From contig JAKPHK010000076.1 in NCBI GenBank assembly GCA_029550345.1, positions 724 through 64,723 on the forward strand: a stretch of DNA of 64,000 nucleotides, read 5' to 3'. Source of the stretch: Pseudomonadota bacterium (GTDB lineage: Bacteria > Pseudomonadota > Alphaproteobacteria > Sphingomonadales > Sphingomonadaceae). Within the stretch, counting starts at the first letter, position 1; each line of letters starts with the position of its first letter. Below are positions 20,015-34,168 of the stretch, in pieces. The notes below the pieces were generated by a model that had not been told where the DNA came from, did not search any database, and worked only from the letters and a program-made list of their open reading frames with translations. Both the position numbers and the translations under genes were made by a program.

Positions 20015-20205
20015 TGCGTGTTCCCGCTGCGGGCAAAGCGCGCGAAAGAGAAGATGGCGGCGGCGCCGATCGGCATGGCGATATCCTGCCACAGCAGCGG
20101 CAGAAACGGCGTGCCGCCGATAACCTTGATTACCTGAACCAGCGCGAACAGGCTGGTCCCGGCGATTACGAACTGAACAAGTGCGGCTTGCAGGCGCGGG
20201 TTCAC
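20011..20205 (-). CDS. Small hypothetical membrane protein (64 aa, two TM segments)
   Basis: GTG start overlaps the trpB stop, stop overlaps the trpA ATG; hydrophobic sequence. Confidence 0.65.
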
Positions 20206-21419
20206 AGCCGTACCCCCAGATGCTCCGCCACGGCGAAGATGTCCTTGTCCCCACGCCCGCACAGGTTGGCGAGGATGATCTGATCCTTGCCCATGGTTGG
20301 CGCGACCTTCTTCACCGCAGCAATCGCATGGCTGGGCTCCAGCGCGGGGATGATGCCTTCGGTGCGGCACAGCAGCTGGAAGGCATCCAGCGCCTCATCA
20401 TCGGTAACGCTGGTATAGTCCACCCGGCCGACATCGCGCAGCCAGGCGTGTTCCGGCCCAATCCCGGGATAGTCGAGCCCGGCGCTGATCGAGTGGCCTT
20501 CGATGATTTGTCCGTCCGCATCCTGCAGCAGGTAGGTCTTGTTGCCGTGGAGAATGCCGGGACGACCACCTGCCAGCGACGCGGCATGATCCTTGTCGAG
20601 ACCGTAGCCCGCGGCTTCGACGCCGAGCATCTTTACATCGGCATCGTCAAGGAAGGGATGAAACAGCCCGATCGCATTGCTGCCACCGCCGATCGCGGCG
20701 ACCAGCAGATCGGGCAGGCGGCCGGTGCGCGCCAGCATCTGGGCGCGGGCTTCCTTACCGATCACGCTTTGGAAATCGCGGACCAGCTCGGGGTAGGGGT
20801 GCGGACCGGCGGCGGTGCCGATGATGTAGAACGTGTCGTGGACGTTGGCGACCCAGTGGCGCAGCGCCTCGTTCATCGCGTCCTTCAGCGTCGCGGCCCC
20901 GGCGGTGACAGGCACCACCTCTGCGCCGAGCAGCTTCATGCGGAAAACGTTGGGCTGCTGGCGGGCGACGTCGGTCGCGCCCATGAACACGGTGCAGGGC
21001 AGGCCGAAGCGCGCAGCGACGGTGGCGGTGGCAACGCCATGCTGGCCCGCGCCGGTTTCGGCGATGATCTTGGTCTTGCCCATCCGCATCGCCAGCAGGA
21101 TCTGGCCGATGCAGTTGTTGATCTTGTGCGCGCCGGTGTGATTGAGCTCGTCGCGCTTGAACCAGACCTGCGCCCCGCCGAGTTCTTCTGTCAGCCGCGG
21201 GGCGAAATAGAGCGGGCTGGGCCGGCCAACGTAGTGTTCAAGCAGATCGTCAAATTCGGCCTGAAACGCCGGATCGACCTTTGCAGCATTGTATTCCCGT
21301 TCAAGGTCGAGAATCAGCGGCATCAGCGTTTCTGCGACATAGCGCCCGCCGAACTGGCCAAAATGCCCGCGCTCGTCAGGCTGATTGCGAAAAGAATTTT
21401 TGGACAGATTTTCGGTCAT
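20202..21419 (-). CDS. trpB: Tryptophan synthase beta chain
   Basis: [44 protein letters not shown]. Confidence 0.98.
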
Positions 21420-21481
21420 CACGGGGCCAGCGATTGGCAGAGTGGCGTAGGGAAGTCCAGTCAAACCGATGACTTGTCTGG

Positions 21482-21540
21482 TTAAACGCTGCGTAAGAAA
21501 CGTACACTCATGGCTGGATATATGTTGCAAGAATGTCACA
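21482..21540. promoter_or_regulatory. Regulatory motifs in the trpB/omp divergent region: CtrA-like TTAA-N7-GTAA (21482-21496) and pseudo-palindrome TGTTGC-N6-GTCACA (21523-21540)
   Basis: Motifs read directly in an AT-rich intergenic region; binding proteins not identified. Confidence 0.35.
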
Positions 21541-30770: not shown

Positions 30771-31673
30771 ATGAGCGACACTTCTCAGCCCCTATCCTTT
30801 CAGGACATGATCCTGCGGCTCCATGCCTTCTGGAGCGCGCAAGGCTGCCTGATCCTGCAACCTTACGATATGCGCGTGGGGGCGGGGACATTCCACCCGG
30901 CGACCACGCTGCGCAGCCTGGGTCCGCAGCCGTGGAATGCCGCCTATGTCCAGCCGAGCCGCCGCCCGACCGACGGCCGCTATGGCGAGAACCCCAACCG
31001 GCTGCAGCACTATTACCAGTATCAGGTGATCATGAAGCCGAGCCCGGCGAACCTGCAGGAACTTTACCTGCAATCACTGGGCGAAATCGGGGTCGATCCG
31101 CTGGCCCACGACATCCGCTTTGTCGAGGATGACTGGGAAAGCCCGACACTGGGCGCCTGGGGGCTGGGCTGGGAAGTCTGGTGCGACGGGATGGAGGTGA
31201 CTCAGTTCACCTATTTCCAGCAGATGGGCGGATTTGATTGCAAGCCGGTCGCGGGCGAACTGACCTATGGGCTGGAACGTCTGGCGATGTACATCCAGGG
31301 TGTCGATAACGTTTATGACCTGGCCTTCAACAGCGCCGGGGTTACCTATGGCGAAGTGTTCCTGAAGAACGAGCAGGAATTCTCCAAATGGAACTTCGAA
31401 GTGGCTGATACCGACCAGCTGTTCCAGGGCTTCCGCAATGCCGAGGCCGAATGCCAGCGCTGTATCGAGGCAGAGGTTCCGCTCGCTGCCTATGACCAGG
31501 CGATCGAGGCCAGCCACCTGTTCAACCTGCTGCAGGCGCGCGGCGTGATCTCTGTGCAGGAGCGCGCCAGCTACATGGGCCGGGTCCGTGATCTGGCCAA
31601 AGGCAGCTGCCAGGCCTGGATCGAAAAGAACAAGGACCAATGGGCCAAGGACTATCCGGAGTGGAGCCTGTGA
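30771..31673 (+). CDS. glyQ: Glycine--tRNA ligase alpha subunit
   Basis: [51 protein letters not shown]. Confidence 0.98.
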
Positions 31674-31702
31674 GCGACAGTCTTGACGCAGGCGCGACCA
31701 CT

Positions 31703-34168
31703 ATGACGCGCGATTTCCTTCTCGAACTCCGCAGCGAGGAAATCCCCGCCCGGATGCAGGCCGGGGCCCGCGCTGATCTGGAACGGCTGTTCCGTAAGGC
31801 GATGGACGAGGCCGGGGTTGCGCTGGGTGAGTTGACTGTCTGGTCCACCCCGCGCCGCCTGGCGCTGATCGCGCGCGGCCTGCCTGCGGCGACCGCTGCG
31901 GTCAGTGAAGAAATCAAGGGCCCGCGCGTCGGCGCGCCGCCGCAGGCACTCGAGGGATTCCTGCGCAAGACCGGTCTGGCCGAGGGTGATCTGGTCGAAC
32001 GGGACGGCGTGCTCTATGCCGTGATCGACAAGCCGGGCCGCGCCACTGCCGAGGTGATCGCAGAGGCGATACCAGCCCTGATCCGCGCCTTCCCCTGGCC
32101 CAAGAGCCAGCGCTGGGGCGCTGCGTCGATCAGCACCGAAAGCCTGCGCTGGGTCCGCCCCCTGTCCGAAATCATCGCGCTGCTGGACGGCGAAGTGGTG
32201 CCCTTCGAAATTGATGGGATCGCCGCTGGCCGGACTACGCGCGGGCATCGTTTTCATTCGCACGGCGCGATCGAAATCGCCGGTGCGGACGACTATGCCG
32301 AGAAACTGCGCGCCGCCCACGTGATCGTCGATCATGAGGAGCGCCAGGACCTGATCCGCGAACAGGCCGCTGCTGCCGCCCATGCCGAAGGGCTGGTGCT
32401 GGTCGCCGATGAGGGGCTGGTGGTGGAGAACGCCGGGCTGACCGAATGGCCGGTGCCGCTGCTCGGCCGCTTTGACGAGGCGTTCCTCGCTGTCCCGCCC
32501 GAAGTGATCCAGCTCACCGCGCGGACCAACCAGAAGTACTTCATCTGCCGTGAACCCGCGGGCGAGGGGGAAGAGCAGGGGCGCCTTGCCAATGCCTTCG
32601 TCTGTACCGCCAATATCGTCGCGCTTGATGGCGGCGCAGCGATTGTTGCGGGCAACCGCAAGGTCCTCGCCGCACGGCTGAGCGATGCGCGGTTCTTCTG
32701 GGAACAGGACCAGAAAAAGACGCTGGAACAGCACGCTGAAAAACTGGCGCGGATTACTTTCCATGAGAAGCTGGGCAGCGTCGCCGACAAGGTTGAGCGG
32801 GTCGCCAAGCTGGCACGGTGGCTGGTTGAGGAAGGGATAATCCTCCCCGAAACGGGGAGGGGGACCAGCGGAGCTGGTGGAGGGGCACGCGCAAGTGATC
32901 CCGACATTGCTGGTCGGCACCCTCACGAACACTCGCCTGTACCCCTCCACCATCCTGCGGATGGTCCCCCTCCCCGTGCCGGGGAGGAGCTTTCACTCGC
33001 CGATCAGGCCGAACTGGCCGCACGGCTGTGCAAGGCCGACCTCGTCACCGAAATGGTCGGCGAATTCCCCGAACTGCAAGGCCTGATGGGTGGCTACTAT
33101 GCCCGCGCCGAAGGCCTGCCCGATGCCGTGGCCGACGCGATCCGCGATCATTACAAGCCGGTCGGGCAGGGCGATGAGGTGCCGACTGCGCCGGTGACGG
33201 TGGCGGTGGCTCTGGCGGATAAGCTGGATACGCTGGCGGCATTCTTTGCGGTCGATGAGAAGCCGACCGGTTCAAAAGATCCTTTTGCGCTCCGTCGTGC
33301 AGCAATCGCAGTGATCAATTTGATCGTTCAGAATAACCTTAGGCTGTCATTGAGCCTAACTGCCTACGCGGCGGGCTTGGCTGCATCGCTTGACGGTAGG
33401 AATGACCCGAACCTGCTTCTAGGCAGAATTTATGAGGCGCTGGCTTCGACACGAAGCGATAGAAGGATCGAATCAGAACTCTCAAGCTCGCTACTTTATA
33501 CGGTGGTTGAGAATGCAAATTTCAGTTTGGTTCAGACCAAAGAGCATGTCGCGACAGCAGCAACCGATTGTCTAGATTTCATCATCGACCGTCTCAAGGT
33601 CCAGCAGCGCGAAGCGGGCGTCCGCCACGATCTGATCGACGCGGTCTTCGCGCTCGGCGGGGAGGATGATCTGGTCCGCCTGCTGGCCCGCGTCCACGCG
33701 CTGCAAGGCTTCATCGGCACCGAAGACGGCGCCAATCTACTGGCCGGATACAAGCGTGCCGCCAATATCCTCAAGAAGGAAGGCTTCACCCAAGATCGTC
33801 ACCCCGGACTTGATCCGGGGTCCCGCTTGACGGCGGGCGCGGAAGAAGGGAGCGGGACCCTGGGTCAAGCCCGGGGGGACGGGGATGTTGGCGAGATAGA
33901 GCTTTCCTACACGCCCGATCCGGCGGAAAAGGTGCTGATCGATGCGCTCGATGCAGCCGGGCCCAAGGCTGCCGAGGCGGTTGCGGCAGAGGACTTTGCC
34001 GCTGCCATGGCGGCACTGGCAGCGTTGCGTGCACCGATCGATGCCTTTTTCGAATCTGTGACGGTCAACGATGCCGATCCCGCCAAACGCCAGTACCGCC
34101 TTTCGTTGCTCGCACGGCTGCGCGATGCGGTTCGCGGCGTGGCCGATTTCTCAAAGATCGAGGGCTGA
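31703..34168 (+). CDS. glyS: Glycine--tRNA ligase beta subunit with three in-frame insertions
   Basis: FLLELRSEEIPARMQ, TPRRL, WPKSQRW, ARLSDARFF, EFPELQG, GSKDPFALRRAA; alternative GTG start at 31670. Confidence 0.96.
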   Translation: MTRDFLLELRSEEIPARMQAGARADLERLFRKAMDEAGVALGELTVWSTPRRLALIARGLPAATAAVSEEIKGPRVGAPPQALEGFLRKTGLAEGDLVERDGVLYAVIDKPGRATAEVIAEAIPALIRAFPWPKSQRWGAASISTESLRWVRPLSEIIALLDGEVVPFEIDGIAAGRTTRGHRFHSHGAIEIAGADDYAEKLRAAHVIVDHEERQDLIREQAAAAAHAEGLVLVADEGLVVENAGLTEWPVPLLGRFDEAFLAVPPEVIQLTARTNQKYFICREPAGEGEEQGRLANAFVCTANIVALDGGAAIVAGNRKVLAARLSDARFFWEQDQKKTLEQHAEKLARITFHEKLGSVADKVERVAKLARWLVEEGIILPETGRGTSGAGGGARASDPDIAGRHPHEHSPVPLHHPADGPPPRAGEELSLADQAELAARLCKADLVTEMVGEFPELQGLMGGYYARAEGLPDAVADAIRDHYKPVGQGDEVPTAPVTVAVALADKLDTLAAFFAVDEKPTGSKDPFALRRAAIAVINLIVQNNLRLSLSLTAYAAGLAASLDGRNDPNLLLGRIYEALASTRSDRRIESELSSSLLYTVVENANFSLVQTKEHVATAATDCLDFIIDRLKVQQREAGVRHDLIDAVFALGGEDDLVRLLARVHALQGFIGTEDGANLLAGYKRAANILKKEGFTQDRHPGLDPGSRLTAGAEEGSGTLGQARGDGDVGEIELSYTPDPAEKVLIDALDAAGPKAAEAVAAEDFAAAMAALAALRAPIDAFFESVTVNDADPAKRQYRLSLLARLRDAVRGVADFSKIEG
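32841..32988. repeat. Palindromic REP-pair element inserted in frame in glyS
   Basis: TCCTCCCCGAAACGGGGAGGGGGACCA..TGGTGGAGGGG inverted against CCCCTCCACCA..TGGTCCCCCTCCCCGTGCCGGGGAGGA. Confidence 0.85.
33797..33881. repeat. Second-family palindromic element (RPE-like) inserted in frame in glyS
   Basis: CGTCACCCCGGACTTGATCCGGGGTCCCGCT against inverted AGCGGGACCCTGGGTCAAGCCCGGGGGGACG (27/31 match). Confidence 0.85.

Follow-up and report, generated by a model that had tools for sequence, protein, structure and literature searches.

We analysed a 64-kb stretch of DNA (64,000 nucleotides of contig JAKPHK010000076.1, assembly GCA_029550345.1; hereafter the window) from a Novosphingobium metagenome-assembled genome. 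The window carries glyS, the gene for the beta subunit of glycyl-tRNA synthetase (GlyRS), and within glyS lies a low-GC tract that keeps the reading frame. The protein segment encoded there is a hypervariable module between conserved anchors: when the same site is compared among relatives, the segments found at it are either near-identical or unrelated. The anchors on either side align with elements that contact tRNA in Escherichia coli GlyRS, the core of the insert has no true homologue in the libraries searched, and inserts that are retained are under purifying selection.

A low-GC tract within glyS

An earlier note on this DNA, made from the letters alone, had drawn attention to bases 33301–33580 as poor in GC. 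A recount gave the same figure that the note had reached by hand, 136 G+C in 280 bases (48.6%), and this compares with 66% GC and a GC content at third codon positions (GC3) of 0.73 in the remainder of glyS. Windows of 280 nt across the 64-kb stretch have a mean of 63.3% GC (sd 3.9%), which places the glyS segment at a z of about −3.8. When the 2424 long open reading frames (ORFs) of high GC3 in the genome are ranked by their lowest internal 240-nt window, glyS (48.3% GC) comes second from the bottom, tied. Twelve other long ORFs have an internal 240-nt window below 52% GC; they encode four TonB-dependent receptors, BamA, a Tad pilus protein, a GGDEF protein, an AraC regulator, an MFS transporter and three proteins without a Pfam family, and glyS is the sole core translation gene with such a window. 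The twelve ORFs (loci L113–L124) are found on contigs C31, C39, C79, C22, C73, C100, C120, C82, C103, C35 and C87.

Codon usage in the tract is equally atypical. Taking as genome-rare any codon used at most 3.2 times per 1000, 18 of the 105 codons between 33272 and 33586 are rare, as against 2.4 expected and 16 of 716 in the remaining glyS. They include the codons that the earlier note had listed, AGA (2), AGG (3), CTA (4) and TCA (4), and the note was also right that the frame is kept, as the glyS frame is the only one of six that is open across 33271–33590. RNA folding of the tract is unremarkable (z −0.9), and a search for internal promoters and terminators gave no promoter-like site, with terminator-like sites at chance level.

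Metagenome contigs from four runs, each from a different study, span both junctions with no differences (X1, 33034–33828; X2, 33121–33640; X3, 33121–33826; X4, 33142–33828), which excludes an assembly artefact. The studies sampled activated sludge and anaerobic digesters and are dated 2016–2022. The allele is thus invariant in the contigs of four runs, with the reservation that rare variants do not show up in contigs. A related organism in these samples carries a short form of the region, with 106 bases replacing 33283–33592.

The tract is delimited by codon alignments with G007 (a minimal form) and G321 (97% identical across 88 upstream residues), the closest relatives with available DNA. Nucleotide identity is high through the Gly codon of GSKDPF, collapses at TCA (33272) and returns abruptly at GAC CGT (33587). 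From 33272 nearly all synonymous sites are changed, to A/T-ending codons, even though the residues SKDPFALRRAA are kept; the divergence thus begins in the anchor itself (TCA AAA GAT CCT TTT), as had been claimed from inspection. Recoding of a conserved anchor argues for a regional cause at the DNA level rather than for relaxed codon selection at unconstrained residues. The tract carries recoded homologous glyS sequence, comprising the motif and the helix AAIAVINLIVQNNLRLSL that follows it, and is therefore more than a simple loop insertion. This helix is homologous to that of other GlyS proteins, but it is diverged as well as recoded. On the other side, the downstream anchor DRLKVQQREAGVRHDLIDAVF is nearly invariant among relatives, at the DNA level included.

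Alignment with the solved E. coli structure relates both anchors to tRNA recognition. Passages of a structural study (PMC9908026) describe contacts of Gly473, Asp474, Asp476, Arg481 and Arg482 of E. coli GlyRS with tRNA base pairs 1–4, and of Arg531 with the acceptor-stem backbone. The extra residues fall between E. coli positions 505 and 518, an interval of 13 residues in E. coli and of approximately 63 here, which agrees with the earlier note that the linker is much shorter in typical GlyS. Judging from helix lengths, the insert would sit at the far end of a helical hairpin whose base reads tRNA-Gly at its acceptor stem. The core is net acidic by a count from its sequence, which disfavours an RNA-binding role, and the insert probably has no catalytic role either. 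The insert was also checked for internal repeats and for duplicates of adjacent GlyS helices, and similarity was no greater than in shuffled sequences. An intein was rejected: the core has only ∼70 residues where inteins have ∼130 or more, a Pfam scan (E up to 0.01) of the protein found two synthetase families only, and the GlyS helices continue on both sides.

Variation of the insert among relatives

In order to compare the same site across genomes, we parsed both anchors in 98 of 110 genome loci; the 12 that were omitted have variants of the second anchor (DRLEV, YRLKV, DRLGV, ERLKV and others) or a cut gene. The anchor-to-anchor length in the 98 loci ranges from 27 to 135 residues, and the long forms typically have 43–56% GC inside genes of 63–70% GC. 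The pattern reaches loci of Brevundimonas, Paracoccus and Hyphobacterium, and isolate genomes such as those of Sphingobium xenophagum and Sphingomonas mucosissima have the same kind of insert. Several of the 12 omitted loci are visibly of the long-insert type too.

Addition of 113 parsed database proteins gave 186 distinct sequences, 133 of them with an insert core 20 or more residues long. Single-linkage clustering of the 133 inserts (BLASTP E < 1e-4) yielded 101 families. A minimal form of 28 residues, ending in GEGD, is present in 37 of the 113 proteins, which indicates that the module is dispensable. Among pairs whose flanks (177 residues) are at least 95% identical, 16 have homologous inserts, with 90–100% identity, and 12 have unrelated inserts (12 of 28 informative pairs); in a further 25 such pairs both members are short. 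At 90–95% flank identity there are 21 homologous and 171 unrelated pairs. One pair with flanks 98.3% identical combines the minimal form with a 98-residue form, and two proteins labelled Citromicrobium bathyomarinum by their sources have unrelated inserts at 93.8% flank identity. Unrelated inserts had no DNA similarity and no shifted-frame similarity, so that compensated frameshifts fail to explain them; when such frameshifts were considered as a source of inserts, the only two matches were in the same frame, L109/L111 (86% DNA identity) and L064/L067 (weak, E 3e-4). The earlier note had proposed a hypervariable module swapped by recombination. Hypervariability and wholesale replacement are borne out by the family count and by the bimodal similarity, while recombination itself we only infer, no near-identical insert having been found in clearly distant flanks. 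By the note's own account its proposal would fall if the segment were of equal length, vertically inherited and host-like in GC among close relatives, or else an assembly artefact; instead, its length varies among relatives, the segment is not shared, rare inserts are usually low in GC and the assembly is confirmed.

Three pairs of proteins have a mosaic pattern when a 366-residue N-terminal block is compared with the rest. In P0031/P0076 the insert and the C-terminal part are 100% identical and the N-terminal block 86%; in P0048/P0057 the insert is 100% identical, the adjoining parts 96–100% and the N-terminal block 84%; and in P0051/P0119 the corresponding values are 94% for the insert, 99% for the upstream flank and 85% for the N-terminal block. 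Either recombination within glyS or chimeric metagenome contigs would produce such mosaics.

Inserts that are retained are under purifying selection. Among eight homologous insert pairs, six had a proportion of non-synonymous differences (pN) of 0.23–0.54 against a proportion of synonymous differences (pS) of 0.79–0.91. One close pair had a dN/dS of 0.18 in the insert and 0.12 in the flank, and one short pair had 0.55. In a widespread 113-residue Novosphingobium family (nine species, 36 pairs), the insert had a pN/pS of 0.20, as against 0.25 for the flanks. Non-synonymous divergence of cross-genus homologous inserts is 2–5 times that of their flanks. When the cores were pooled, codon periodicity was clear, with G at position 1 at 0.40 and a flank-like composition at position 2, and their amino-acid make-up correlated with that of the flanks at r 0.84, as compared with r 0.57 for the random expectation at the same base composition. 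Constraint together with this protein-like make-up indicates that the inserts are genuine parts of the protein and have existed for some time, as opposed to newly captured junk. The tests made lend no support to the diversifying selection, or the role as a phage or toxin decoy, that the note had suggested: retained inserts are under purifying selection, and the allele is invariant in four metagenomes. Members of the 113-residue family, whose GC3 is host-like, are at loci L034, L129, L132, L134, L136, L138, L143, L145, L147, L148 and L154, and the AlphaFold2 (AF2) model of this family is helical, at a predicted local distance difference test score (pLDDT) of 51–60.

The GC pattern was followed across the families. 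In 51 GC-rich genes with long inserts, GC3 declines gradually from ∼18 codons upstream of the motif (0.83, 0.70, 0.61, 0.58, 0.53), remains close to 0.55 along the helix and is back up within five codons at DRLKV; 14 minimal-form genes have no such dip. For 90 cores with DNA, GC3 of the insert was compared with that of its own gene. Singleton inserts (n = 62) have a mean deficit of 0.22, with 54 of the 62 below −0.10, and families of two or three are at −0.21, whereas the only large family (10 species) is host-like, at −0.014. Cross-genus families whose synonymous sites are saturated still have a GC3 of 0.46–0.58, which speaks for a locally maintained low GC rather than for a donor signature left over.

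The insert core is an orphan. The 321-base tract is single copy in its own assembly, and the core was absent from 375 further genomes of the genus, each representing a different species. A word-seeded search of 5.8 billion clustered proteins, in which relatives below ∼50% identity are missed, returned only the core itself, and a full HMMER search of 1.84 billion representatives, in which 50% whole-protein clustering can hide insert variants, gave no true homologue. The one HMMER match, P0004, is a repetitive 1844-residue protein aligned over a short Leu/Ala-rich stretch, and was judged spurious; a metagenome-contig match (L126) is an unrelated ORF in 72.5%-GC DNA, seeded by the 8-mer GRIYEALA, and was judged to be chance. 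At blastn sensitivity, plasmid and phage DNA gave no match to the tract. The closest ESM Atlas clusters, at 0.86–0.88 and thus below the 0.9 level, consist of GlyS fragments, which we treat as a lead only. DNA of the closest protein relative, P0005, was absent from metagenome contigs and from genomes of the genus, where only a 37% relative (in G055) was found.

Several possible sources of the insert were rejected. A repeat or mobile palindromic element (MITE, REP or RPE-like) does not fit a single-copy tract with an unremarkable RNA fold, and a diversity-generating retroelement target is not supported, as no template repeat was found and the 321-base tract matches only itself in the 3.1-Mb, 93.7%-complete assembly. 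Phage copies of glyS are all <60% identical and mostly from unrelated hosts. A plasmid vehicle for glyS was considered on account of a match in Sphingomonas parapaucimobilis, and the matching "plasmid" looks like a chromosomal piece. The record in question (L127; NZ_CP155756.1, 20377–33162), labelled a plasmid of 197 kb, has glyQ-glyS-ppdK together with a ribosomal protein L25 gene, a chromosomal-looking synteny, and is probably a chromosomal piece or a chromid.

Explanations for the turnover and the low GC

We put at about even the chance that the insert is a replaceable helical excursion at the permissive tip of a hairpin, between two tRNA-contacting elements whose DNA is suited to crossovers. 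Both anchors would be fixed by tRNA contact, and the tip would accept lengths between a 5-residue turn and more than 100 residues. In the Sphingomonadales as a whole it would behave as a cassette, each variant being held by purifying selection while present and being replaced or deleted whole on a speciation time scale. The most likely route would be recombination with crossovers in the conserved flanking DNA, which would account for a recoded tract that reaches into the anchor motif. Low GC would be a maintained property of rare, allele-specific DNA rather than a fresh foreign signature, and would probably arise because AT-biased mutation goes unopposed where GC-raising gene conversion lacks a homologous partner. 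Work on GC-biased gene conversion in bacteria has compared genes with one another (Lassalle et al. 2015; PMC4450053). Such conversion would predict lower GC3 in DNA without mismatched recombination partners, and this fits both the low GC of the rare inserts and the host-like GC of the widespread family. The contrast here, unlike the one between genes in that work, would lie within one gene and ∼300 bases.

A number of observations weigh against this explanation. AF2 confidence in the insert core is low (pLDDT 52–69). The mosaic pairs are mostly from metagenome contigs, so chimeric assembly is possible there, and among the 133 inserts compared none was near-identical in clearly distant flanks, so that we infer cassette exchange rather than demonstrate it. 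No donor or homologue of the insert was found in any library searched. Members of the 10-species family are kin, which makes the contrast between rare and widespread inserts effectively n = 1, and amelioration of foreign DNA fits that contrast equally well. Normal recombination of the insert within a species is also possible, which weakens the argument from missing gene conversion.

Adaptive diversification, in which an antagonist (a phage protein, toxin or inhibitor) docks on the hairpin tip and a cassette swap brings escape, is in our judgement unlikely. It would sit well with all-or-none replacement among very close relatives, with conservation of each variant while it is kept and with the dispersal of 133 inserts over 101 families. 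It would also suit the set of ORFs with low-GC patches, as 6 of the 12 encode TonB-dependent receptors (four), BamA or the Tad protein and glyS is the only core translation gene among such ORFs. Weak leads come from passages on phage-coevolved Vibrio alginolyticus, with a 2-bp deletion upstream of glyS (PMC8521149), and on phage-resistant E. coli, with a glyS single-nucleotide polymorphism in four mutants (PMC8711792). GlyRS is a cytoplasmic enzyme, however; searches of CC-licensed PMC and bioRxiv papers yielded no antagonist that binds it, positive selection was not seen where it was measurable, many lineages thrive with the minimal form, and the allele is identical in four metagenome studies from 2016–2022, with the reservation already made about contigs. 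In a more doubtful version, an intracellular antagonist docking beside the acceptor-stem loop would impose long-term diversifying or balancing selection on an exchangeable surface module of the Sphingomonadales GlyRS beta subunit, and low GC would mark ancient, never-recombining allele lineages.

Recent horizontal import of a foreign, lower-GC glyS stretch by homologous recombination, with GC as a donor signature that ameliorates over time, appears less likely again. Coverage of homologous glyS codons with nearly all synonymous sites changed and with sharp ends is what import would leave, the widespread and presumably older family is host-like in GC where rare inserts are low, and the pooled inserts resemble long-standing coding sequence. 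Yet no donor was found in the 375 congeners, among the 5.8 billion clustered proteins under a word search that misses relatives below ∼50% identity, or in plasmid and phage DNA, the 1.84 billion representatives and the metagenome contigs gave spurious matches only, and amelioration should have erased the low GC3 that saturated cross-genus families keep. We regard as improbable very fast drift in place, in which an unconstrained loop would accumulate substitutions and indels and mutation bias alone would make it AT-rich. The excess non-synonymous divergence of cross-genus inserts and the tolerance of any length at the site are in keeping with such drift, but over short distances inserts are conserved like their flanks (90–100% identity; pN/pS 0.20 versus 0.25), and similarity is bimodal rather than graded, which largely refutes it. 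Neither the finding that unrelated inserts in close relatives keep no trace of similarity, in their DNA or in shifted frames, nor the protein-like, non-random make-up, nor the recoding of the conserved anchor would be expected from drift. An assembly chimera or contamination might be suspected from the 7.1% contamination of the bin and from a second glyS fragment at the start of contig C31; it is refuted by the identical contigs of four studies, the frame is intact, isolate genomes carry the same kind of insert, and we give it a negligible chance.

Three known systems resemble the replaceable helical excursion in part. Aminoacyl-tRNA synthetases have lineage-specific insertions and appended segments that, as a rule, are common to entire clades and stable there. 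The GlyS module is like these segments in being an extra surface segment that leaves the catalytic and tRNA-reading elements intact, and unlike them in that flanks at least 95% identical can enclose unrelated segments, that the families number 101 and that the composition differs sharply from that of the gene. For the hypervariable central regions of flagellin and the target-recognition domains of type I hsdS, exchange is documented, and the proteins are exposed to phages, immunity or DNA targets. Conserved flanks suited to recombination, non-homologous middles of lower GC in close relatives and conservation of variants while present are all features held in common with glyS, but GlyRS is a cytoplasmic housekeeping enzyme that is not known to face a selective agent of this kind, and exchange in it is putative. 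Rickettsia palindromic elements are in-frame peptide insertions in essential genes at permissive surface sites; here too an extra in-frame peptide segment is present, and the same glyS carries two palindromic elements, but the low-GC tract is single copy, is not palindromic and includes recoded homologous glyS. A search of the full-text literature (CC-licensed PMC and bioRxiv) yielded no description of a hypervariable or cassette-like GlyS segment.

The genes of aminoacyl-tRNA synthetases are a textbook case of slow evolution in the core genome and serve as phylogenetic markers. That whole segments of 50–110 residues should swap between close species, directly between two tRNA-contacting elements, is unexpected in a synthetase. 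If the turnover is adaptive, it would point to an unrecognised conflict aimed at the translation apparatus, and an antagonist-driven module would be a cytoplasmic housekeeping counterpart of the variable regions of flagellin and hsdS. If it is neutral, the site would be a small natural experiment in which the origin of high GC in GC-rich bacteria can be studied, since within 300 bases GC3 falls from ∼0.8 to ∼0.5 in allele-specific DNA and does not do so in the widely shared insert. In practice, glyS trees, and bins and assemblies of Sphingomonadales, can be misled by this mosaic region.

The glyQ-glyS locus and other insertions in glyS

The host assembly has 3.1 Mb, at 93.7% completeness and 7.1% contamination, and the genus also includes Novosphingobium nitrogenifigens DSM 19370, its locus L014 being identical to the named locus L036. 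The features of the locus are collected in Table 1. The gene order glyQ-glyS is also annotated in a Sphingomonas record.

Table 1. Features of the glyQ-glyS locus, in window coordinates.
Feature	Coordinates	Strand	Remarks
Low-GC divergent tract	33272..33586	+	105 codons, 48.6% GC, GC3 0.49
Upstream anchor GSKDPFALRR, acceptor-stem reading loop and helix start	33269..33298	+	Ungapped alignment to 7YSE_C, E. coli G473-R482
Post-loop helix (AAIAVINLIVQNNLRLSL)	33299..33352	+	Aligns with E. coli 483-505; AF2 helix at model residues 528-543
Orphan insert core, aa 572-642	33353..33565	+	AF2: three helices, model residues 550-563, 569-583, 589-603
Downstream anchor DRLKVQQREAGVRHDLIDAVF	33587..33649	+	Arg of DRLKV aligns with E. 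coli R531 (7YSE_C)
glyQ (GlyRS alpha subunit)	30771..31673	+	300-aa ORF, directly 5' of glyS
glyS (GlyRS beta subunit)	31640..34168	+	842-aa ORF
GC-rich in-frame palindromic repeat element 1 (aa ~401-455)	32838..33002	+	Copies on both strands, contigs C69, C18, C22
In-frame palindromic repeat element 2 (aa ~717-750)	33785..33895	+	Copies on both strands, contigs C22, C62, C29

The identity of the enzyme was examined at the level of family, fold and motif. GlyS matches Pfam tRNA_synt_2f with E 4.5e-180 over residues 26–670, covering profile positions 1–535 of 536. The AF2 model has a mean pLDDT of 87.2, and Foldseek aligned it with solved beta subunits (7YSE_C, E 2e-42, target-normalised template modelling (TM) score 0.80; 8IE2_E, 0.79). 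The C-terminal DALR-type anticodon-binding domain (PF05746) scored 22.2 bits against a cut-off of 22.3, and the fold match extends over the C-terminus. The protein thus has the tRNA_synt_2f core, the fold of the solved subunits, the acceptor-stem loop G-x-K-D-P-F-x-L-R-R, the Arg aligned to E. coli R531 and an adjacent glyQ, the features of a GlyRS beta subunit. The longest glyS ORF has a 34-base overlap with the end of glyQ (window 31640–31703). Matches to relatives begin at residues 16–24, the database copy P0003 has 832 residues, and the true start is likely to be M22, at 31703. A second C-terminal fragment of glyS (C31:82-333), with 69% identity to residues 759–842, stands at the beginning of a 206-kb contig and comes either from bin contamination or from a second strain.

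Two GC-rich palindromic elements are inserted in frame elsewhere in glyS, and both are disordered in the AF2 model (pLDDT <50). Element 1 is a separate insertion, outside the low-GC module, and its RNA hairpin has a predicted energy of −105 kcal/mol (z −9.9). Element 2 is skipped by a relative's contig, and some relatives are without these elements. Both resemble the in-frame palindromic elements of Rickettsia.

Elsewhere in the window, the only place as GC-poor as the glyS tract is 21231–21451 (47% GC), which spans the 5' end and the upstream region of a minus-strand ORF (20202..21539) that is, by eye, tryptophan synthase beta-like.

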